From a virus (Duplodnaviria > Heunggongvirae > Uroviricota > Caudoviricetes): DNA of 43,880 nt. The stretch lies in the IMG/VR virus record IMGVR_UViG_2877948078_000004; one strand, written 5' to 3'. A program made the position numbers and the translations under genes. The notes under the pieces were generated by a model. The model did no database searches, was not told the origin of the DNA, and saw only the letters and a list, made by a program, of their open reading frames with translations. Of this stretch, positions 1-37,048 are shown in pieces (position 1 is the stretch's first letter; each line of letters begins with the position of its first letter).

Positions 1-97
1 AAAATAATCTCGGTGTGAGATGCTTTACGTCTTCCAAGCCCCCTTCCTTGCCGTAAATGGAAAGATACATCTAATTATAGAATTTATATGTTTTACC

Positions 98-673
98 CTA
101 CGGCAGTGCTGGCCATTCAATATCCTGTGCAGTTGACGTATCAACACGGTTCAGCAACACCCGATACTTTTTCCAGGCTTCCAGCAATGAGGTTTCTTCC
201 TCCGTTGCGATTTCCAGATCTACAGCATCCTGAAGTGGCGCAATATGCTCACTGGCTACCTGCATCAGGCTGTTTTTTGTTTCTTCCGCCTCTCGGATCC
301 GGAACAGTTTTTCTGCTTCTGCATCTTTCACCCAGGCTGTGCCGTTCCACTTCTGAAACTCCCCTTCCGGCGATAACCAGGTAACATTTTCCGGTAACGG
401 ACCGAGTTCAGAAATAAATAACGCGTCCCCTGACGCTACGTCATAAACCGTTTTACCCCGATGGTCTTCAACGAGATGCCACGATGCCTTATCACTGTTG
501 AAAACAGCCACAAAGCCAGCAGGAATATCTGGTGGTGCAATATCGGTACTGTTTGCTGGCAGACCTGTATGAGGCGGAATATATGCGTCACCTTCACCAA
601 TAAATTCATTAGTTCCGGCCAGCAGATTATAAATTTTTATGGTCCGTGGTTGTTCACTCATTCTGAATGCCAT
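98..673 (-). CDS. tfa: Tail fibre assembly protein (lambda Tfa-like)
   Basis: 191 aa translation recognisably lambda Tfa-like ([21 protein letters not shown]...); immediately downstream of stf on the same strand with 1-nt overlap. Confidence 0.85.
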
Positions 674-3612
674 TATGCAAGCCTCACAATATAGTTAAAT
701 GCGATGTTTTTGACGGTGTTTTCCGCGTTACCAGCAGCGTTAACGGTGATGGTGTGTCCATGTGAACCAATCGCAACGGAGTGCGTATGAGCACCAATAC
801 CGACAGTATGCGCGTGTGCACCTGCAGATGCTGCTGTGCCGGACAGTGAATGGCTATGATTACCATCTGTACTGGTATTCGCTAACCACCCCGTAGACAT
901 ACCTACTGAGCCTTGTACACCCCAGGTATTTTGACCTGAGCTTGTATAACCATATTGATAAGTATCTTTAAAAACACTGGGGTTAAATCGACGGCCATCT
1001 CTATGGCTGTGATTACCAGCTGCATTCGTGCTGCCACTTAAACTATGGGTATGCGCACCAGTGTTATTCGTGGATTTAGTGCCGTAATCAAACGACGATG
1101 TGGTTTTCGTCCCCAAATCCGTACTGGATGCGCTGGCGCTGTGGGTATGCGATTTAATGCCGTCCTGTTCCTGAGACAATACGGCCCGACCACTGGCAGG
1201 TTTGCCCTTAATCGTCCAGCCACGCATATCAGGGATCACGCCTGACGGATAAGCGGCTGCAAGTTTCGGGTATGCAGATTTGTCAAAAGTCTGCCCCTGC
1301 ATCAGGGCATAGCCAGACGGAACGGTATCTGATGGCCACGGGATTGGTGCACCGACTGGATAAAACTCTGCAGGAGGATGAGCCGAGGTGTAAAGCTGCG
1401 CCCACGGCGACCAGTTTGCGTCGGTCGTATCCCGTCGTGAACGAATAAATGCCGGAGCATGAGCACCGCTTGTACCACTCCAGCCGATGAGTAACTCACC
1501 TTCGCCAACGGCTGACATCCCTTTCAGGTGAATGATATTTCCATACGCTGTTGGATATCCGTTGTTATACACCTCGTATAACTCAAGACCTGCTGCCCCC
1601 TGCGTATTGTCTGTCAGCGCGGCTACCCGACCTTTTGAAGCCAGATTAACTGATGATACTGCTGTTCCACCTGACGGTAACGCCCCGATCTCTGATGCCG
1701 TTGGCTTATTTCTGGAGTTATAGTCCCTTCGCCAGCCAGGTGAATAATCTGTTCCGTGATTAATATAGGTAAACTGGGCGTTGGTTGTTCCGCCACCGCT
1801 GGATGTGGTCGGAGTGGTAATGCGGATCGTCATCGCTGACTTTATCCCCATTACTTCAATGACAGCTCCGGCGAGATGAATATTACCGCAGTCAGTATCA
1901 GTAATGATTTTATTATTGCCATAAGACCAGGAACCCTTGCACATCCAGTAGGGATGGTTAAATGCTCCCTGAGAATCCAGCCACTCGATAAACTGTGCAG
2001 TCGTCCAGTTTCCTGTTGTTGTGCTTACTGACCCACCGAAGGCACGGCAGGCACCAATATTTTTCGTAAAGGTGTCTTTGCCAGGGATATCCGCACCGTT
2101 CTGATCTTTCTGCAGACGTTTCTCGGCATTGTCATAGGCTGTTTTTACTGCCTTTGGTGTCGCTGCAAGCGTTTCAGATGTGCTGTTGGTCGCACTGCTG
2201 AGCTGTACTATCCCCTTTTTCGTCGTGCTCGCATCCTCAAGCGCCACGGCGGATGCAATATCCTCTGCCCGTTTTGCCGCTGTCTCAGCGCGCGTTGCTG
2301 CAGATTCCGCCGTACTTTTGCTCTGAGCTGCTGCCGTCGCACTACCAGCTGCCTCTGTCGCCTTCGTGGATGCCGTCGTGGCGCTGCCTTTCGCTGCTGA
2401 TGCCTGTCTGGTCGCCTCATCTTTTGAAGCAGACGCAGATGATGCCGATGACGCCGCCGAACTGGCGGACGATGCAGCTGCCGTTTTTGAGGATTCTGCA
2501 CTGGTTTCCGACGCTTTCGCGTTCGTTTCGGATGTCTTCGCTGCGGATGCAGACCTCGCTGCTGCGCTGGCCTGTTCAGCGGCTTCGCCAGCCTTCGTTG
2601 TGGCTGTTGAAGCGGACAATGCAGCGCTTTCTGCCGATTTTCCGGCGGCAGTGGCACTGGCTGAGGCCTGCCCGGCACTTGTTGACGCGGCACTGGCAGA
2701 TGATGCAGCCGCTGTTTTTGAGCCTGCCGCAGCTGAGGCACTCTGTCCCGCTGCCGTTTCAGAAGACTTAACGTTCGTCTCGGACGTTTTTGCCGCCTTC
2801 GCAGAATTTGCTGCCGCCGTTGCCGAGGAAGCTGCGCTGCTGGCGCTTGATGATGCGTTCGTTTCTGATGATTTTGCCGCCTCTTTTGAAGCCGACGCAT
2901 CCCGGGCTGAGGTGGCAGCTTCTGACGCTTTCGTGGTCGCGGTGGATGCAGAAGTGGCTGCTGATTGTTGTGACGCTGCAGCATTCGTTTCAGACGTTTT
3001 CGCGGCACCGGCACTGGTGGCCGCCGCGCTTTTTGAGGACTCTGCAGCGGCAGCACTTTTTGATGCTTCAGTGGCCTTTGCTGATGCCGTTCCTGCGCTG
3101 GAAGACGCTGACTGAGCCGACGACGCGGCCTGTCCGGCTGACGTGCTGGCTGCGCGTGCTGAGCCTGCAGCATCAGTCGCATGGGTTGCCGCCTCACGGG
3201 CTGATGTGCTGGCATCGCTGGCTGACTTCTTCGCGGCTGCCGTGTTCTGTGCCACCGCGGACGCGTTACGCGCCACCTCTTCCACCATCAGCTCAAAACG
3301 GCGCAGTGCCTCCGGACGGGCATCATCCTCAGTCATGGCACCGAGAAAATCATTCAGCGTACCGGGTCGGGAATCTTCATACACGGTAATGGTCCCGGCA
3401 TGTGATGGCGGGAATCCCTCCACCAACAGAATAACGCTGTACTGACCGTACTCAACGTCCATGCTGTAACGCCCGGCTTCATCCGGATTTTCTGAGGCAA
3501 GCGTGTTCACCACCACCGTGTTGCTGTTACGTTTTGCTTTCAGCTGGATTGTGCAGTTCTGTACCGGTTTTCCTGTGCCGTCTTTCAGTACACCTGAAAT
3601 CTTTACTGCCAT
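673..3612 (-). CDS. stf: Side tail fibre protein (lambda Stf-like) with expanded Ala/Ser/Thr-rich repeat region
   Basis: N-terminus [26 protein letters not shown] and C-terminus ...[28 protein letters not shown] match lambda Stf as I recall it. Start placed at the ATG giving MAVKIS with GGGGTG RBS (track ORF begins 6 nt upstream on GTG at 3618). Confidence 0.85.
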
Positions 3613-3621
3613 ATTCACCCC

Positions 3622-3649
3622 ACAAAAAAGCCCGCCTGAACCGGCGGGC
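3622..3649 (-). terminator. Intrinsic terminator-like hairpin between lom and stf
   Basis: On - strand: GCCCGCC-GGTTCA-GGCGGGC stem-loop followed by TTTTTTGTGG. Confidence 0.5.
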
Positions 3650-3676
3650 TGTCATAACACTGTGTTACCTGGCTAA

Positions 3677-4276
3677 TCAGAATTTATAACCGACACCCAC
3701 GATGAAACCGTCAGTGCGCCAGTCACCACTGCCGGAGCCTTCATAAGCAATATCAATGGCCACGGATTCGGTCGGGTTAAACTGCACGCCAGCCCCCCAC
3801 GCCAGAGACGTGTTGCTGTGGCGACCGTCATCACTTCCGGTCAGCACATCGTGCTTTTTCCCCTTGTTGTCAGTTACGCGAAGATAATCCCCGGAGAAAG
3901 TCGACACACGGCTGTAAGCTACACCCGCCATCGCATACGCGCTGAACCATTCATTCACGGGCACAGACGGCCCCGCCATTACGCTGAACCAGCGGTTACG
4001 AACGGAATCTTCATGCCAGCGGGTATCGCTGTAACGGGTCAGCTGGCGATTCTTGTCTCCTGCATAGCTGAATGACGTCACCAGCCCCAGTGTGTCCGTA
4101 AACTCATAACGGTATTTCACGTTAATCCCGTTCAGATCATCACTGCCGGGGACGTTCGTCGAGGCATGAAGATACCCCGCGCTCAGCGTGGACTGATGTT
4201 CAGACGCCCATGCAGGCGCACCGGATACGGCCAGACAAATGGCTGCGGACAAAATTGCTGCACAAACTTTACGCAT
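3677..4276 (-). CDS. lom: Outer membrane protein Lom (Ail/Lom family), lysogen-expressed moron
   Basis: 199 aa with signal peptide (MRKVCAAILSAAICLAVSGAPAWA) and beta-barrel-like C-terminus ending GYKF; sequence recognisably lambda Lom; sits between J and stf as in lambda. Confidence 0.9.
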   Translation of the reverse strand: MRKVCAAILSAAICLAVSGAPAWASEHQSTLSAGYLHASTNVPGSDDLNGINVKYRYEFTDTLGLVTSFSYAGDKNRQLTRYSDTRWHEDSVRNRWFSVMAGPSVPVNEWFSAYAMAGVAYSRVSTFSGDYLRVTDNKGKKHDVLTGSDDGRHSNTSLAWGAGVQFNPTESVAIDIAYEGSGSGDWRTDGFIVGVGYKF

Positions 4277-4298
4277 AATTACCTCTCGCTTTTCTGCA

Positions 4299-4324
4299 AT
4301 AAAAAAGGCGTCATTCCTGACGCC
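4299..4324 (-). terminator. Intrinsic terminator-like hairpin between J and lom
   Basis: On - strand: GGCGTCA-GGAA-TGACGCC followed by TTTTTTATT. Confidence 0.5.
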
Positions 4325-4346
4325 CTTTATTGGGGTTATAAATATT

Positions 4347-7300
4347 TCAACGAATACTGATGCCGGAAGCGGCTTTTTTGGTCACAATCACCGTACAGTC
4401 GGTGATATTGCCTGCCCCCTGATTGCCTTTCTGGAAAATCTTAAACTCCAGAGTGACGCTTCCCCTGCCACTCGGCATATCAATAACTGCACTGTAACTA
4501 CCGGGAATGGCCCCTTTAGTTTCTCTGGATGCGATTAATACGCCGTTTTTGCGAACTTCAAAACCATAACCCGTGTATCGCGTGCCTCCTGGGTTATTTC
4601 CGCTCCCCGGATCGTCATACGCTATACCGTTAAAAATAATGGGCGGAATAATAATCTGGCGGTCAAAGTTATGATCATCGCTGATGGTGACTGTAACCGT
4701 ACCGTTTGGTGTTTCCGTGTTACCCCACGTACCGACTTTTTTCGGGAAGGCTTTTGATACAGCTTTAACGAAATCTCCTCTGACCTGGGTCGCCTCCAGC
4801 ATGCCCTTAATCGTACAGTTCTGGTTAATCGTGACATTGTTGAGCGTTCCTGAGTTCGCATTCACACTGCCACTGATATCCGCATTTTTCGCCGTCAGTC
4901 TCCCGTCTGATGTCAGGGAAAATGCCGGAGGATTACCGCCGCTGGTAATGGTGGGGGCCGTCAGGCGTTTCAGGAACACTTCATTCATGAATATCTGATC
5001 GCCCTGACCAACAAACATCGGCTTTGTGTTGCCATTCGCAGGATTAATCATCGCAATCCTGTCTGCTGCCAGCAGCACCTGACTCTGCATGCCGTCAGGG
5101 GTGTTCTCAATACCGGCACCGATACCCGCAATATAAAGGCGTCCGTCCTGCATCTGCTGCAGCTTCACTGCCCACATGCTGTTCAGGTTATTATTTGTAT
5201 CAACCTGAACCTTCTGTATCTGCTGGATCGCTGCACTCTGGTCTTCCAGTTTCTTATTGACGGTCTGTGTTATTTCATTGCTGACATCCGTTATGGACGT
5301 CCTGATTTCAGTCAGGTCAGGCGCAAGCTGACCGTTATCAATCTGCGTCCACAGCTCCTGAGCCAGATGGGTTTTCCCTATCTCGCCTTTGAAAAAATCC
5401 AGATAGCCTGATGCATCATCACTCGGCTGACCGACAGCCTCCACGAATGCCGATTTGCCAACGGTGTTCACACTGCGAACGTAAAAATAATAATCATGGC
5501 CCGGTTTGATATTGATACTGGCGGCTATCCAGTACAGTGCCGTACCAAGATAACGCGCGCTGGTTTCAACCTGCCTGATATCCGCAATCCGTTTTTCCGA
5601 GAACCAGAACTCAAACTGTACCGTCGGGTCATAAACCGCAAGATGCGGCGTGGCGGTTATCTGAAAATAGCCCGGCGTCAGCTCAATCCGCGACGGCGCT
5701 GCCGGTGCGGCAATCCGGAACGATACCGACGCCGGATCGCCCTGCTGCCCCCACGCATTTACTGCCCGGACTGTCAGCCTGTAGTTCCCCAGAGCCAGTT
5801 GTGTGAAGCGGTAAGTGGTTTCCGTCGTCCGGGCCGTGCTGACCAGCCGCTCACGGCCGTCATCCGCTGCCACGGTCAGGCGAAGCAGGAAGCTCACGCC
5901 CTTCACCACCTTCGGCGTGTCCCAGCGCGCCAGCACCTGGTATTCCCCGCTGTCTGCGGTGACTTCTGCGGTCAGGTGCTGCACCGCTGGCGGCGTGACA
6001 CCATTTACCGTGCCGCTCTGGTCGCCGTCAAAGTGCGCCCCGTTATCCACGATGGCCTCTTTTTCCGGTACATGCTGCACGGCGGTGATGGCATACGTGC
6101 CGTCGTCGTTCTCACGGATACTCACGCAGCGGAACAGGCGCTGGCGCAACGTCGGCAGCTTCAGCCCCCATACGCTGTATTCAGCAACGCCGTCAGGAAC
6201 ACGGCTCACTTTCACCTTCACGCCGTCGGTGACGGACTGAACCTCCACGCTGACCGGACTCCCCTGCCCGTCAACCAGGCTTATCAGCGTGGTGCCGGAA
6301 GATGGCAGCGTGATTTCACGGTCGAGCGTCAGCGTCCGGGTCTGGCTGTTTACCGCCAGCACGCGCCCGCCGGTGCTGATACCGGCATAGTCATCATCGC
6401 AGATTTCAATGACATCGCCCGGTACATGGCGAAGCCCTTCGGCACCCACGCTGAAGTCCACGGTCTGCGTTTCCAGCAGTTCTGTTTTAATCAGCCACAG
6501 CCCGGCGCGGTGTGCCTGCCCCCGGCTGGTACAGCCAAAAGCATCCATCTTCGTGACGTTACGACCGTAACGGGCAATGGCCTGCGTGTCCTCCACAAGC
6601 TCTGTCGCCGTCTCCCAGCCGTTATTCGGGTCAATCCAGTTCACCTCAACGGCATTATGGCGGTCCTTCAGGGCGCTGAAGCTGTAGCGGAACGGCGCAC
6701 CATCATCCGGCATCACCACATTACTGCGGTTATAGGTCCACACCTTATCCGACGGTCGGTCCTGCACGAACGTCAGCGTCTGCCCGTTCCATACCGGCAT
6801 ACAGCGCATCGCAGAGCAGAAATCACTGAGCACATCCCACGCCTTGCGCTGTGTGGTCAGGTACGCATTACAGGTGATGCGCGGCTCCGTGCCGCCAAAA
6901 CCGTCCGGCACCGACTGATCGCAATGCTGGCCGATGACATACAGCGCCCATTTGTCCACATCCGCCGCACCAAGACGTTTCCCCATGCCGTAGCGCGGAT
7001 GGGTCAGCATATCCCACAGACACCAGGCCATGTTGTTGCTGTATGCTGGCTTAAACGTTCCGTCCCAGATACCGCTGTATTGCCGCGTCTGCGGGTTATA
7101 GTTCGACGGCACCTGCAGAATGCGCCCGCGCAGATGATAATTACGGCTCACCTGCTGGCTGCCGAACTGCTCCGAATCCACCTGCACGCCGACCAGTGCC
7201 GTGTTCGGGTAGCACTGTTTCACATCGATGATTTCGGTGTATGACGACCAGAGCGTTTTGTTCTGCAGCTGGTCTGTGGTGCTGTCCGGCGTCATCCTGC

Positions 7301-7844
7301 GCATCCGTATATTGAACGGGCGCGGCGGCAGGTTACCCACCACCACCGAGGCCAGATACTGCGAGGTGGTTTTGCCCTTAATGGTGATGTCTTTTTCCGT
7401 CACCCAGCCACCATTACGCTGGATCTGAACCAGCAGGCGGACTTCCGACGGATTCCGGTCCCCCTTTGAGGTGGTTTCCACCAGTGCCTGCACGCCGAAG
7501 GTAAAGCGCAGACGGTCGATGTTTGCAGACGTAATGGTGCGGGTGATCGGCGTGTCATATTTCACTTCCGTACCCAGCACCGTCTCGGAGCCGGAGGATT
7601 CAAACCCCTCCGGCGGTGTCTGCTCCTGCTCACCGGCACGGAACACCACCGTGACACCGGAGATGTTGGTATTCCCCTCAGTGTCCAGCACCGGCGTACT
7701 GTTCAGCAGCACGCTTTTTAATCCATCCACCGGACCTTCAACCGGCCCTTCGCTGATGGCATCGATCACACTCAGCAGCTGCGTGGACTTCAGGTTGTCC
7801 TTCGCTTCGCGCGGGGTATGCCCCTTACTGCTGCCTTTACCCAT
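4347..7844 (-). CDS. J: Tail tip host-specificity protein J (central tail fibre)
   Basis: 1165 aa; N-terminus [41 protein letters not shown] and long internal stretches match lambda J as I recall it. Confidence 0.95.
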
Positions 7845-27181: not shown

Positions 27182-28264
27182 ATGAAAAAATTAACAGTGG
27201 CAATTTCTGCTGTAGCTGCATCAGTACTGATGGCGATGTCTGCTCAGGCAGCTGAAATTTATAATAAAGACAGTAACAAGCTGGATCTATATGGGAAAGT
27301 TAATGCCAAGCACTACTTCTCCTCTAATGATGCAGATGATGGTGATACTACTTATGCCCGTCTTGGCTTCAAAGGTGAAACCCAAATCAACGATCAACTG
27401 ACTGGTTTCGGTCAGTGGGAATATGAATTCAAAGGCAACCGCGCTGAATCTCAAGGCTCCTCCAAAGACAAAACCCGTCTTGCATTTGCAGGCCTGAAAT
27501 TCGGGGACTACGGCTCAATCGATTACGGCCGTAACTACGGTGTAGCATATGACATCGGTGCGTGGACTGACGTTCTGCCAGAATTCGGTGGCGATACCTG
27601 GACCCAAACAGATGTGTTCATGACTGGTCGCACCACTGGTGTTGCAACTTATCGTAACAACGACTTCTTTGGTCTGGTTGATGGTCTGAACTTTGCTGCT
27701 CAGTATCAGGGTAAAAATGACCGCACTGACGTAACTGAAGCTAATGGTGATGGTTTCGGTTTCTCCACTACTTATGAGTATGAAGGATTCGGTGTAGGTG
27801 CAACCTATGCTAAATCTGACCGCACTAATAATCAGGTTATCTACGGTAACAACAGCCTGAATGCATCTGGTCAAAATGCTGAAGTATGGGCAGCTGGTCT
27901 GAAATATGATGCGAACAACATCTATCTGGCTACCACCTATTCTGAAACCCAGAACATGACTGTTTTTGGTAATAACCATATTGCCAACAAAGCACAAAAC
28001 TTCGAAGTAGTTGCACAATATCAGTTCGACTTCGGTCTGCGTCCGTCCGTTGCTTACCTGCAATCTAAAGGAAAAGACTTGGGTGCGTGGGGTGATCAGG
28101 ACCTGGTTGAATATATTGATGTAGGTGCAACCTATTACTTCAACAAAAATATGTCCACTTTTGTTGATTACAAAATCAACCTGATTGATAAGAGCGATTT
28201 CACGAAAGCATCTGGCGTTGCTACCGATGATATCGTTGCTGTAGGTATGGTTTACCAGTTCTAA
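27182..28264 (+). CDS. nmpC: OmpC/OmpF-family general porin (phage Lc / NmpC-like lysogenic-conversion porin)
   Basis: 360 aa with signal peptide ([23 protein letters not shown]), AEIYNKD… mature N-terminus, C-terminal …VGMVYQF beta-barrel signature; sits between Q and the lysis genes, opposite strand, as in DLP12/PA-2. Confidence 0.85.
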
Positions 28265-30807: not shown

Positions 30808-31422
30808 CTAACGTTGTTTAATAACATTCTGACGCAAATGTGGCAATACTCGACTCCACTTATCATCCTGCCACGGCTGGAATTTTACATGTGCCGTTTC
30901 TCTGGCGAGGATTGCTCGCGCTCTGGTGAGTATCTGGGGATATTCTTGCTCGATGGAAGTGAAGCGACCAGCTTCACGATGCTCCGCAACCTGAAGAAGG
31001 GGAGTAACGTTCTGGCAGGCGGTTAACATCGCATCCCCAGCTCGCCATAACCAAGCAAGTGTGCAAAGTTCGTTATCAGTGAATTGTTTTGTGATCGGGG
31101 ATTGTTGAACTTCTCGATCGAGAATATCCAGAACCCAGCGGCGGAACTCTTTGGCTACAGGAGTTCGTGCAAACATGGCGATCAAATGGGCTCCGCGAAG
31201 GCTAAATACTCGAGACTCCTGCATTCCACGAGGGGTGGTCACTTTGACCACCCTTGTCATCATATCTGTAAATTCATCTGAGTGACGAGAGTAAATGCGC
31301 TGAACTGCTTTATCGTCCGCATATTCCAGAGCTAAACCAACTTCAGTGGCAGTAAGCCAAATTCTGTTATTGTGGCAAATTGGGGTAAACGTCGTTTTGT
31401 GGAATGCTAATTGAGTAGTCAT
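30808..31422 (-). CDS. Bro-N domain protein (putative antirepressor-like / DNA-binding)
   Basis: 204 aa; N-terminal region (…NNRIWLTATEVGLALEYADDKAVQRIYSRHSDEF…SLRGAHLIAMFARTPVAKEFRRWVLDILDREV) fits the Bro-N/KilA-N-like pattern; GAGGTGA RBS. Confidence 0.5.
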   Translation of the reverse strand: MTTQLAFHKTTFTPICHNNRIWLTATEVGLALEYADDKAVQRIYSRHSDEFTDMMTRVVKVTTPRGMQESRVFSLRGAHLIAMFARTPVAKEFRRWVLDILDREVQQSPITKQFTDNELCTLAWLWRAGDAMLTACQNVTPLLQVAEHREAGRFTSIEQEYPQILTRARAILARETAHVKFQPWQDDKWSRVLPHLRQNVIKQR

Positions 31423-31685
31423 AGTTTCACCTCATCAGGTTAACCATCACCACCAACGACGCCAATCGACTGGTGGTGAACTGTGCAAGGTTGGCGTAAC
31501 CGGCTACTCAAATCCGGCGCTCCCGAAGAAGCCCTCACACAGCCCACCATAATTTGGGCGTAGCCGTGCTTAGCGCATAAAAAAACCGCTTAACGCGGTA
31601 TGCGTTGAGTAGTATTCCGGGACGCCAATCCCGTGTGCCGATTTTGCGGCAACGCACAGAATATATCCCCAGATAAATCATGTCG

Positions 31686-31835: not shown

Positions 31836-31943
31836 GAATGTAAAAAATCGTAGGTGCATTTCTGCATCTGTGAATGGAGAAGATAGGTTGGATTGTATGT
31901 GCGCATAAACGTCCCCGTTTAGCGCAGAAGTCACCGGAGTTGT
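31836..31943. repeat. Copy B of the ~105-bp imperfect direct repeat
   Basis: See copy A; the central ~50 bp differs between copies. Confidence 0.7.
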
Positions 31944-32033
31944 TCAGGCTCCGGCTTATTAATATTGCCTACTTACAATTAATTTTTCAACTGTTAGAAA
32001 CTTATAATTAGCTGTCTCTTTGTAACTATCAAT

Positions 32034-33930
32034 TTAATTATTTTTCTTTAACTTGAAATTTCTTCCCATTGCTAGTGTTCTTCGAAGATTCGAATCATAA
32101 GCTGGTTGATAATATCTATCATAAAAATCCTTAATTGTCTGATGGTAAGTATCCAGCATCAAACCATAAAACCCCATGACCTTAAGATAATCCACCAAGG
32201 GAAATAAATAATCATCAGTCTGAACATCAGTATCAATATTATTTTTTTGTTTTTTAACTTCAAATTTGTATAAGTTTAACTCACCCTTATCCATCGTGTA
32301 TGAAAAAAGGTCGTCAAAAATCAAATCAATTTTTGTCATAGGAACTCGTTCTTTTCCAGACATTATAGGTAGAATATCAATACCTAAGAGCGAACCTAAT
32401 ACAAAGTCGTAATGAAGCGAAATCACTGAGTCATTCGATGTCGAGTTGCCTTTGATAAATACTCTACTTAGTGCCGAGTCAAAAACATTCTCAACTCTCT
32501 CTCTCGTCATGTTTGCGACATCTACAACCCCCATATCACGAGAAGCTTTTATTGTGATTTCATCTATAAATGCTTTGGAATCTAGTGAATGTAAAAACAA
32601 CATGAAGTTATCTAACTGTTCAGAGCATTTAATAGCCACCATAAGATTTTCGTATATATCTTTTTTATACTCAATCGGTAAATTTGCTACCGCAAAAGCA
32701 GCATAAAATTCTTGCACTGATTTATGCAGAAAAACATACCTATTATTTCCCTCAGGTTGGATAAGGCAAGTTATCTCAATAAGATCATCTATAAAGTTTG
32801 ATGCATCTTCTTTAAGATAACCTTCTGTTTCAATAGCATCTTCAGCATATCTAAGCAACTCCTCTCCCCAAAACTCAAATTTCTCCTCAATCAGTGCGTT
32901 ATAGCAAATAGCTGAAAAACACAATTTAGCTTTTTCACCAATAATGTTTGATTTTTTCTCGCGCGTATATACTTTTATTTTATCATGCCTTGCATATAAG
33001 GTGTCAAAGAGGCTTCGATAAAACTCTATTATATTATTTGGAATATCATTCATATAAGGATAACAATAATACAAAAGAGTAACTAAAATTGGATTGCAAA
33101 TAGTTCCCTCAAGTTCTTCTTTATCACATAGTAAATCCGCCAAGACTTTAAACGAGGCATCACTACTTGAGAATCTGTCATTTTTCGATAAAGAATGAAG
33201 AATACAAATCTTATCAGAAATATTTAGCTTATCTATAAAAATATTATACACATCAGTAGTATAACATATATCTGTATTTGGTCTCGTTGTTGCGATAATT
33301 GGTGTGTTAAAATGATAATGAATGTTTTTTATTTCATTCATCATCATAGTTCGCTCTTCATGTTTAACCTCATCAAATCCATCCAACATTAAAACGACTC
33401 TTTGGGATTGCAGTAATATTTTCAAGCTATCCTCTGAACACCCCACACCAAATGAATTAAGAATGTCTGCCAGATAAGCAATAATATTTGCATTCTTCAC
33501 CCTTCTTAATTCAATAAAAAAAAGGCATCCGTTCTGATTTTTTTATTTCCTCGCTAAACAACTTGCGTAAAATAGTACTTTTCCCTTGCCCCGCTATACC
33601 GACTATATTTACAATACCATGAAATGGTAAAGTGACCCCATCTTTTATAACGACCTTGTCTTTATTAGATGCCACCTCAACAGTTAACGGATAATAAATA
33701 TCATCTAAAAAAATATCATAATCAGCGTTGTGCAAAGTTCTCATTTTCAGAGATGGTAGCACATGCTTTCTTAAATAATTTTCTCTTCCGAGGGGATCAT
33801 TTAATTGTTCGAGTATAACCTTGCCTTCATCTAGGTCCCTAGCCCAAGGTTTAGAGAGCAATACTTCTGTTATTTTTTCCGCAGCTTTTCCTACTGTGCT
33901 ATTAATAATAGTCGCAAGAAACTCATCCAT
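32034..33930 (-). pseudogene. NACHT/STAND-family P-loop NTPase, interrupted by a +1 frameshift at an A8/T8 homopolymer (33516..33523)
   Basis: Upstream ORF (33511..33987) ends just after Walker A (GIAGQGKST); downstream ORF (32034..33500) begins just before Walker B (VVLMLDGFDEV) and sensor-1-like IIATTRP. Removing one T from the T8 run (- strand) fuses both into a single ~630-aa reading frame. Low-GC island. Probable start at MDEFLATI (33930) with GGTGA RBS. Confidence 0.6.
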
Positions 33931-34318
33931 TTTTTCACCACATTCATTAACCAATACGTGGTGCATTCTTACAAGACTCAGTAACAATTGTCAATCATAG
34001 GTTTTCGCATGATTGCAAAACGCCATAAACAATTGTAGCACCATAATTTTAAACACTATATAATATACAACCTTCCTACAAGCATTCAGTACATCGCTTA
34101 ATCACAGGGCTTGAATATATAGTAAGGAATCGATATTAATCACCTCATCTACTTTAAACATCTTACACACCTATAATTTATAATAGTCAACACGAGGTCA
34201 TCATATTAAACATGCAATTACAAACATTCATTTTTATATAAATTTTCATGATTTAACCGTAGAGCGACGGTAATAAATTTCATATACAAGGATTTAAGCT
34301 CCCATACGTTTTCTATTA

Positions 34319-34498
34319 TTAAAAATAACATACCGTTCGCCAGACCTTACCATCAATGACCAGGATTCCTGCCCGCGCCATTTTTGCCGCAGCCTGATTT
34401 ATGCTGGTTAATGTCACACCTGTTGTCGCAGCAACGTCCGGCGCACAGAAGCTCTTGTGCGTCCCCAGGTAATGAATAATTGCTTCTTTTCCCGTCAT
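34319..34498 (-). CDS. ren: Ren-like protein, C-terminally truncated relative to lambda Ren
   Basis: 59 codons MTGKEAIIHYLGTHKSFCAPDVAATTGVTLTSINQAAAKMARAGILVIDGKVWRTV… match the N-terminal part of lambda Ren; stops where similarity to lambda ends; start overlaps P stop (ATGA). Confidence 0.6.
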   Translation of the reverse strand: MTGKEAIIHYLGTHKSFCAPDVAATTGVTLTSINQAAAKMARAGILVIDGKVWRTVCYF

Positions 34499-36208: not shown

Positions 36209-36748
36209 TCATATCGCCCCCAGCATGGTAGTAACCATCGCCATCAATGGACCAGCCAGCTCTGGGTCCACACGAAACATCGACACAATACCTTCACTAA
36301 TTTCCTTCAGTTTCTGGTGGCGTGGTGCGTTGAGAATGACAGCCTGTTTTGCCTCACTGAGTTCCTTTTCCATTTCAGCCAACCTAGCCATGAAGCTATC
36401 CTGCTCAACCAGGTAACCGCGATATTCCAGCGGTAGTACCGCCAGAATTGCCGGGGTCAGTTCACGCACGTTATTTCGGTATTTTTCAGAATCGAATTTG
36501 TTATCGAGGAAGCGGAACAGCTTCTGGCGTGTACGGCTGACATCATCAGGGAAATCGATGGTGCCGCCGCCCTGCTCCCGATACTCATTCACAATGAGTG
36601 TGGCAACGACATCCTGATTATCTACAGCCGACCAGGCGCGGACGGCATCACGGATTTTTTCGTGGCCTGGCACCTGTTTTGTTTGAGAACGATTTATCAC
36701 CGCAGTCGGGCTAAATCCGCTAGTCTGTTGGTATGGAAGTGGTTGCAT
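36209..36748 (-). CDS. Hypothetical regulatory protein at the cII position (YdaT-like?)
   Basis: 179 aa with AAGGAG RBS between cro and O; too long for lambda CII; assignment to YdaT-like family is tentative. Confidence 0.4.
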   Translation of the reverse strand: MQPLPYQQTSGFSPTAVINRSQTKQVPGHEKIRDAVRAWSAVDNQDVVATLIVNEYREQGGGTIDFPDDVSRTRQKLFRFLDNKFDSEKYRNNVRELTPAILAVLPLEYRGYLVEQDSFMARLAEMEKELSEAKQAVILNAPRHQKLKEISEGIVSMFRVDPELAGPLMAMVTTMLGAI

Positions 36749-36817: not shown

Positions 36818-37048
36818 TTAAGCTGCGTTCTTTTCGGTGTGTGGAAACAACTTCGGAAGATCCGGGCGAATCTGGTATGCCTTCACTACTCCACCAGTAG
36901 CCGTAACAATGCTGCCGACATGTTCAGGGGATACCTTTGCTTTGTTGTGAAGCCACTTATAGACGGCCTGCTGTGAAACTTCGCAGGCAGCGCCCAGTTT
37001 CTTTTGTGAACCAACGATATTGATCGCTGTTTTGATAGCTGGGTTCAT
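36818..37048 (-). CDS. cro: Cro-like HTH repressor (YdaS/Cro family)
   Basis: 76 aa with HTH (QKKLGAACEVSQQAVYKWL), divergently transcribed from cI across the operator region. Confidence 0.75.
   Translation of the reverse strand: MNPAIKTAINIVGSQKKLGAACEVSQQAVYKWLHNKAKVSPEHVGSIVTATGGVVKAYQIRPDLPKLFPHTEKNAA

Follow-up and report, generated by a model that had tools for sequence, protein, structure and literature searches.

A split NACHT gene in a lambdoid prophage

The 43,880-nt stretch of viral DNA analyzed here (the window; IMG/VR virus record IMGVR_UViG_2877948078_000004, Caudoviricetes) represents a largely complete lambdoid prophage, and carries on its minus strand a gene for a NACHT-type NTPase that is divided between two adjacent open reading frames (ORFs). 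An initial annotation, made from the sequence alone, described these ORFs as the halves of a NACHT/STAND gene broken by a single-base frameshift in a homopolymer. The sequence confirms both ORFs, and it confirms the run of eight T residues (A8 on the plus strand) as the site that separates them, at the positions given in Table 1. The upstream frame ends in ...SERMPFFY* at a TGA codon (33511–33513) that lies 3 nt past the run, and not inside it as had been thought, while the downstream frame goes on as (I)ELRRVKNAN...; the gap between the stop and the downstream GTG is 10 nt. The start of the upstream ORF, first placed at TTG 33987, is likely ATG 33930 (MDEF...), which is the start used in RefSeq and in all homologues, and GGTGA occurs 6 nt before it. 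Deletion of one T from the T8 run produces a single open frame of 631 aa from ATG 33930, close to the ~630 aa that had been anticipated, and the repaired product is identical to a protein annotated as intact in other E. coli and recorded on 88 contigs. The window copy is therefore a member of this family by descent, but a disrupted one, in which the reading frame stops after 139 aa.

The low-GC island noted in the initial annotation was also evident, with a GC content of 0.29–0.36 over ~31950–34320 compared to ~0.5 in the flanks, and of 32% in the gene itself. A promoter-like site upstream of the likely start codon is consistent with independent, moron-like expression. Taking together the sequence of the protein, its predicted structure and its similarity to experimentally tested proteins, we consider it highly probable that the gene encodes an anti-phage NLR-like sensor carried by a prophage and belonging to clade 14 of the bacterial NACHT (bNACHT) proteins, that the window holds a natural loss-of-function allele of it, and that its role in defense can be extrapolated from these relatives.

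Table 1. Positions in the window of the NACHT gene, its parts and its surroundings
Feature	Position	Strand	Remarks
Whole bNACHT (clade-14-like) gene, frameshifted allele	32034..33930	-	1897 nt; intact allele 1896 nt, 631 aa
5' fragment, 139 aa (MDEF...SERMPFFY*)	33511..33930	-	N-terminal extension, first strands of nucleotide-binding domain, Walker A; RefSeq WP_050866890; exact sequence on 29 contigs
3' fragment, 488 aa, GTG start	32034..33500	-	Walker B, sensor 1, helical and winged-helix domains, SNaCT-like putative sensor; RefSeq WP_050866891; exact sequence on 22 contigs
T8 homopolymer (plus-strand A8), frameshift site	33516..33523	-	Intact state T7, codons P136-F137-F138, strand following P-loop helix
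Walker A GIAGQGKST (K117)	33574..33600	-	G114, Q115, G116, K117, S118, T119 invariant in 54 homologues
Walker B VVLMLDGFDEV (aa 178–188)	33366..33398	-	D183, G184, D186, E187 invariant in 54 homologues
Sensor-1 IIATTRP (aa 211–217)	33279..33299	-	R216, P217 invariant in 54 homologues
Winged-helix motif FLHKSVQEF (H402)	32706..32732	-	H402, Q406, E407 invariant in 54 homologues
SNaCT-like C-terminal putative sensor domain (~aa 443–631)	32037..32603	-	hhalign 95.9%; fastest-evolving part of the protein
Adjacent A7 run	33538..33544	-	Site of -1 (A6) allele in other isolates (P0024)
Distal A7 run	32242..32248	-	Site of +1 (A8) allele giving 563-aa truncation in strain 720632 and one IMG/VR contig
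Promoter-like site TTGACA-18 nt-(TG)AAGAAT	33965..33994	-	~35 nt upstream of ATG 33930; consensus match only
GC-rich hairpin	31934..31954		Right edge of low-GC cassette; strand not assigned
Truncated ren	34319..34498	-	Left edge of low-GC cassette; RefSeq note 'incomplete; missing C-terminus'; GC step

NACHT identity and placement in clade 14

The repaired protein matched the Pfam NACHT profile (PF05729) over aa 107–218 with a score of 43.8 bits, compared to a gathering score of 26.7, and the same profile was matched by all 54 aligned homologues. The Walker A, Walker B and IIATTRP motifs on which the initial annotation relied were all found, and their key residues were invariant across the 54 homologues. 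Their order was also as described, with ~65 residues between Walker A and Walker B, but IIATTRP lies ~30 residues beyond Walker B and not the 60 that had been claimed. By our reading, the winged-helix motif FLHKSVQEF with H402 is a putative counterpart of the H443 region of NLRC4, a likeness that does not extend to residue-by-residue equivalence; the role of the equivalent winged-helix histidine has been described previously (Kibby et al., 10.1101/2022.07.19.500537). A PDB sequence search with the single protein returned no match, but the family profile did reach the NACHT module of NLRC4 (E ~1e-9). An AlphaFold2 (AF2) model was made on a natural intact allele (P0003) that is 99% identical, with a start called 12 aa upstream, and had a pLDDT of 88.3 and a pTM of 0.86. 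The best Foldseek matches of this model in the PDB were NLRC4, NOD2 and NLRP3 (E = 1e-12 to 1e-9; for NLRC4 4kxf, E = 8.5e-13 and query-normalized TM 0.49; for 5irm, E = 5e-12), and they covered the nucleotide-binding domain (NBD) and the helical and winged-helix domains. The above-threshold profile match of the fused translation, the NLRC4 profile match and the NLR-like fold of a confidently predicted model bear out the NACHT/STAND assignment. The protein is a NACHT NTPase as judged from its sequence and modeled fold, and NTP binding, hydrolysis and oligomerization are predicted for it.

Database searches placed the protein in a large family of 610–650-aa proteins from Enterobacterales, Vibrio, Aeromonas and Pseudoalteromonas. 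A PHROGs search gave two matches, both to families of unknown function, and an NCBIfam search gave only sub-threshold ABC and P-loop noise. No match for the protein was found in PADLOC-DB 2.0.0, a negative that carries no weight because the validated bNACHT01 and bNACHT11 also match no bNACHT model there. An Avs-type identity was considered and rejected: no PADLOC Avs model was matched, and Avs4 (8dgf) was only a distant fold match (E = 1.9e-5, TM 0.21). Because of the NACHT score, the motifs and the NLRC4/NOD2/NLRP3 fold, set against this weak Avs4 match, we regard the protein as NACHT-type and not Avs-type.

The closest characterized proteins were found among the validated bNACHT sequences in Table S2 of Kibby et al. 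(10.1101/2022.07.19.500537). BLASTP alignments, which were limited to the first ~400 aa of each published sequence, showed identities of 41% to bNACHT11, 37% to bNACHT02, 35% to bNACHT12 and 38% to bNACHT01 (E 1e-86 to 1e-100), and began at residue 1 in the first three and at residue 29 in bNACHT01. These four proteins (bNACHT11 is from Klebsiella pneumoniae, WP_114260439.1) are likewise products of single genes and are of the same size (609–639 aa), with the same order of parts, namely an MD... extension, the NACHT module and a short, non-repeat C-terminal SNaCT domain. They also share the Walker A context IIG(I/F)AGQGKSTILRK and the strand PFF(I/M)ELR, and have in common with the present protein a C-terminal domain that is far more divergent than the NACHT module. 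The present protein differs in forming its own subgroup at 35–41% identity, in its location in the early-right operon of a lambdoid prophage, compared to a position near a CBASS island for bNACHT01, and in that this copy is frameshifted.

bNACHT01 and its clade 14 served to define the SNaCT domain, and in that clade the C-terminal domain diverges fast in what has been described as a sensor arms race (Kibby et al., 10.1101/2022.07.19.500537). The SNaCT1 profile (PF22710) was matched by 20 of the 54 full-length homologues, and an hhalign comparison of the C-terminal 189 residues of the subgroup with the SNaCT1-positive relatives gave a probability of 95.9% (E = 5e-9, 173 columns). In the AF2 model the C-terminus forms a compact alpha/beta domain without repeats. 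Identity to distant homologues was 19% in the C-terminal domain compared to 44% in the NACHT module, and 10 of the 13 single nucleotide polymorphisms (SNPs) among nine E. coli genomes carrying the cassette fell in codons 467–587, including six of the seven nonsynonymous changes. This divergence, as far as sequences can indicate, fits the arms race described for the clade. On these sequence comparisons the protein belongs to the bNACHT01-like clade 14, with a putative, divergent C-terminal sensor of the SNaCT type, a specific membership in an already described clade that the initial annotation missed. It appears to constitute a new subgroup of a known defense family, with relatives in Enterobacterales that are 50–85% identical, and no tested bNACHT protein falls in this subgroup.

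Some observations weigh against this placement and against the defensive role that it implies. Neither this protein nor the modeled intact allele had a direct Pfam match to SNaCT1 at E <= 1. The N-terminus reads MDEF and not MDPIT, the consensus in which D2 and P3 are needed in bNACHT11; the present protein keeps D2 and has E in place of P3, among 54 aligned proteins of which 27 have D2 and 18 have P3, and P3 is also missing from the active bNACHT01 (MDII) and bNACHT12 (MDLV). Defense itself is predicted from an identity of only 35–41% to proteins that have been validated, and for bNACHT04 and bNACHT22, which are relatives in the clade, no defense is listed in Table S2 (10.1101/2022.07.19.500537).

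With respect to more distant systems, the fold is shared with NLRC4, NOD2 and NLRP3 over the NBD, helical and winged-helix domains at a sequence identity of 13–17%, but leucine-rich repeats and a CARD or PYD are absent. Unlike in the animal NLRs, sensing here would fall to a small alpha/beta domain, and a short N-terminal peptide would act as effector. Avs/AVAST proteins such as Avs4 are also STAND NTPases encoded by single genes in mobile elements, and couple the sensing of phage proteins to cell death, as may by analogy be the case here; in contrast to them, this protein has no TPR-like sensor or nuclease effector, and the fold match is much weaker.

The ancestral gene encodes a 631-aa protein in which a short N-terminal extension (MDEF...) precedes a NACHT NTPase module, followed by a divergent C-terminal domain of the SNaCT type, and a mode of action can be postulated for it from bNACHT01 and bNACHT11. 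bNACHT01 protects E. coli from T4, T5 and T6, and a mutant in its Walker A lysine (K115) loses defense (10.1101/2022.07.19.500537). The C-terminal domain of bNACHT11 binds several unrelated phage proteins by beta-augmentation, leading to oligomerization (Robbins et al., 10.1101/2024.12.17.629029), and its N-terminal extension (~45 aa, consensus MDPIT) is required, with D2 and P3 both needed, and drives cell death by plasmolysis (10.1101/2024.12.17.629029). By extension, the intact protein may be expressed from its own promoter and lie idle in the lysogen until a phage infects the cell and the C-terminal domain binds phage proteins; NTP-dependent oligomerization would then cluster the N-terminal extensions, and the cell would die by membrane collapse before the phage cycle ends. 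Slippage from T7 to T8 in the P136-F137-F138 codons ends translation after 139 aa, with the break falling, in the AF2 model, in strand PFFIEL directly after the P-loop helix. The 139-aa product has Walker A without Walker B, and the 488-aa ORF has Walker B without Walker A. By analogy, T8 is expected to cause loss of function and should abolish defense, given that neither the Walker A lysine nor the N-terminus is dispensable in the relatives.

Origin of the T8 allele and recurrent inactivation of the gene

The cassette is 100% identical to that of E. coli 2014C-4135 (NZ_CP027310.1), in which RefSeq annotates two coding sequences of 139 and 488 aa, and it was found at >=99.5% identity in only nine of 5426 complete E. 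coli genomes; a megablast search of the GenBank phage collection gave no match to it. Seven others of these nine genomes carry an intact 1896-nt gene annotated as a 'NACHT domain-containing protein', and strain 720632 encodes a 563-aa truncation in which T7 is kept and an extra A is present in the distal A7 run. Comparison of homopolymer length across related prophages thus showed T8 in the window strain alone, with T7 in the other eight of the nine complete genomes and in all eight near-identical IMG/VR loci, in keeping with the single-base frameshift that had been proposed. Intact forms were recorded on 88, 309, 60 and 57 contigs plus others, for a total of at least 500, compared to 29 contigs for the exact 139-aa product and 22 for the exact 488-aa product in NCBI and Logan assemblies, although these counts are biased by outbreak sampling and, with 40 of 382 cluster members read, give only rough allele frequencies. 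T8 was read directly in all three of the separate NCBI draft-assembly contigs examined, one of them on a prophage backbone that is 1.75% diverged. It is a further point against our interpretation that this evidence for T8 consists of assembled contigs rather than reads. T7 is evidently, from these sequences, the common and ancestral state, and we read the split as a +1 insertion in the T7 run that produced a natural T8 allele, with sequencing error excluded because T8 was seen in independent draft assemblies.

T8 is one of a series of inactive alleles. When indels were simulated on the window DNA and compared with the truncated proteins on record, four of these were reproduced exactly: T8 (product ...MPFFY*, 29 contigs), T6 (...MPFLLN*, 18 contigs), a -1 change to A6 in the adjacent, proximal A7 run (...EEIKNQNGCLFLLN*, 3 contigs), and a +1 change to A8 in the distal A7 run (...KKQKK*, 2 contigs plus strain 720632 and one IMG/VR locus). 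Two further truncated proteins end directly before codons (TCA and CAA) that a single substitution would turn into stops, which fits nonsense mutations as judged from the proteins, the DNA not having been read. Another truncated form runs past codon 176 into the end sequence of IS1, and a partial product of 175 aa with the same endpoint was found at contig ends on 21 contigs, consistent with this IS1 insertion having broken the assemblies. T8 itself occurs on two haplotype backgrounds, which differ at three upstream and four downstream markers and have prophage backbones 1.75% apart; from this distribution T8 must have arisen at least twice, or travelled by a very short recombination patch. 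The four A/T runs of 7 nt make up 1.5% of the gene, yet more than half of the distinct loss events that we saw map to them, and the T7 tract is a mutational hot spot. As the recorded sequences indicate, the gene has been inactivated repeatedly, mostly at A/T runs of at least 7 nt, and we read this as the result of mutation-prone homopolymers combined either with relaxed selection or with selection against a costly abortive-infection gene.

The initial annotation had left sequencing error, decay and an ON/OFF switch as options for the homopolymer. With error set aside, recurrent natural loss of function fits the data better than a dedicated switch, which found no support. In the switch explanation, T7 would be kept as a reversible slipped-strand ON/OFF device through which lysogens hedge between costly abortive-infection immunity and growth, and we think this unlikely. 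Such a cost is plausible because overexpressed bNACHT01 is toxic (Kibby et al., 10.1101/2022.07.19.500537). T6, T7 and T8 are all present among near-identical alleles, T8 on two backgrounds, and a -1 change occurs in the neighboring A7 run; the T8 allele shows no further downstream damage, and two sites, the indel and an upstream SNP, separate the closest intact relative, STEC17-190, from the window over 2.4 kb. In-frame and out-of-frame lengths thus coexist among close relatives, as in phase-variable genes, but we found no sign that selection maintains the tract. Conservation of the tract was rejected, since an 85%-identical homologue has an interrupted run (CCT TTC TTT) and a 62% homologue has T6, with T7 in two others. 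Enrichment of homopolymers was also rejected: the gene has four A/T runs of at least 7 nt compared to 2.8 +/- 1.3 in synonymous-codon shuffles (p = 0.29), and such runs can be attributed to its 32% GC content and the conserved PFF motif. Alleles that would not easily revert, namely the two apparent nonsense truncations and the IS1 insertion, co-occur with the slippage alleles. Each slippage allele gives the impression of clonal descent and not of flickering, with T8 found on two backgrounds only, one of them shared in near-identical form by the window and loci L010 and L011. Moreover, mononucleotide runs of 7 nt have a far lower mutation rate in mismatch-repair-proficient E. coli than do classical phase-variable tracts. 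The latter are found, as homopolymers or simple sequence repeats, in phase-variable Type I and Type III restriction-modification mod/hsd genes of Haemophilus, Neisseria and Helicobacter, which resemble the present gene in having a mononucleotide run in a defense ORF with in-frame and out-of-frame lengths in the population; by comparison, the tract here is short (7 nt), unconserved in homologues and unenriched, and is accompanied by alleles that are not readily reversible.

It is conceivable, at somewhat longer odds, that the A/T homopolymers, chiefly the T7 in the PFF codons, act as a slow contingency switch in which T6 and T8 are OFF states that can return to ON, with U8 perhaps leaking some full-length protein. 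If true, such a slow switch would represent homopolymer-tuned NLR-type immunity in E. coli.

We have slightly less faith in the idea that the split allele still works, either because transcriptional slippage or +1 frameshifting by the ribosome on U8 restores some full-length protein, as a 'savior indel' that lowers expression, or because the fragments reassemble. There are precedents in transcriptional slippage on 9-nt A/T runs and in compensatory frameshifting at homopolymer indels, including the G7 run of HSV thymidine kinase (PMC5009743), but the run here is 8 nt and thus below the 9-nt runs cited for efficient slippage (PMC5009743), and no stimulatory element, for example a hungry codon or an upstream Shine-Dalgarno sequence at a suitable distance, is present. 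The downstream ORF is undamaged, and the 10-nt distance from the stop to the GTG could permit some reinitiation; against this, AAGAAGG directly touches the GTG and leaves no spacer. Reassembly of the fragments appears unlikely because, according to the model, the break interrupts the beta-sheet of the NBD, separating the P-loop helix from the strand that follows it, and the apparent nonsense and IS1 alleles show that plain loss is tolerated. Finally, a sequencing or assembly artefact, in which the extra base is a homopolymer miscall, is very improbable, for although single-base homopolymer errors are common in long-read-only assemblies and T8 appears in just one of the nine complete genomes, the exact split products occur on 22–29 contigs in NCBI and Logan assemblies and T8 recurs in three separate NCBI drafts, one with the 1.75%-diverged backbone.

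With recurrent loss of function as the preferred explanation, the natural allelic series, made up of the intact gene, T8 in two haplotypes, T6, the indels in the two A7 runs, two apparent nonsense alleles and an IS1 insertion, suggests that natural populations have repeatedly lost an abortive-infection gene. The series also hints at a cost of carrying the gene, and offers ready isogenic controls for the study of gene cost and phage specificity. The protein adds to the bNACHT01-like, NLR-related sensors an uncharacterized subgroup, ~40% identical to the tested members, that is found on lambdoid prophages in E. coli and other Enterobacterales. The family has been described before, and the type of gene, its location in a prophage and its pseudogenization are all unsurprising and do not overturn current understanding.

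Prophage context and neighboring elements

On the minus strand, from 36.7 kb to 28.5 kb, the order of genes is YdaT, O, P, truncated ren, the NACHT cassette, a Bro-N/P22AR gene, ybcN, ninE, ybcO, rusA, ylcG and quuD. Homology to most relatives that share P/ren stops at ~34325–34332, and the genes that follow this flank vary widely among related prophages, including emrE-ybcK with ybcL/M or a hydrolase. The interval from P/ren to the nin genes holds variable cargo, and these differences, with the truncation of ren noted in RefSeq, document the cargo hotspot that the initial annotation had placed there. Homologues with 62–66% identity also lie between the replication and nin/Q genes of other lambdoid prophages.

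Other occupants of this position were seen in individual genomes. In NZ_AP038814.1 (L023, locus 1–4020), P/ren is followed by HD-domain and SNIPE-associated-domain proteins, one of them split by IS1A, which represents a different defense-type cargo that is also disrupted by a mobile element. In strain 4/1-1 (NZ_CP023844.1; L027, locus 1–4241) ren is absent, and a gene of >1400 aa for an inverse autotransporter (intimin/invasin-like) comes directly after P. One homologue lies elsewhere: in Enterobacter cloacae contigs (L021/L022, locus 19–6905), a 62% homologue is located by integrase, FRG-domain, Ser/Thr kinase and KAP-NTPase genes, in what looks like a compact defense island and not a lambdoid prophage. 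The sister strains of the nine-genome set show other decay of the same prophage: in 720632 (NZ_CP025842.1; L004, locus 1112–2268) an IS600 insertion adjoins ybcN, and in AR_0369 (NZ_CP027140.1; L003, locus 6544–7324) P is truncated and the O/immunity region is replaced.

An Rfam search identified, beyond the right edge of the cassette, a C4 antisense RNA (RF01695; 31469–31554, minus strand; 72.4 bits compared to a gathering score of 45), an isrK Hfq-binding RNA (RF01394; 31579–31651, minus strand; 60.7 bits compared to a gathering score of 50) and a sub-threshold match to the c4 a1/b1 target (31614–31666, minus strand). These three RNA elements lie directly upstream of the Bro-N/P22AR_C antirepressor-like gene (30808–31422) and, by sequence, look like a regulatory module of the P1 immI-type c4-ant or Gifsy isrK type. 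The c4/isrK-like module is separate from the NACHT cassette, and is absent from strains DAM and ANT. Farther along, an OmpC/NmpC-like porin gene (27182–28264, plus strand) occupies a ~2.5-kb interval between quuD and putative lysis ORFs, a placement that matches the DLP12-type nmpC arrangement. At the other end of the operon, the cro/cII positions (36209–36748 and ~36818–37048, minus strand) hold a YdaS-family transcriptional regulator and a 'toxin YdaT domain-containing protein', and these YdaS/YdaT-type genes adjoin an S24-peptidase cI-like repressor on the opposite strand.

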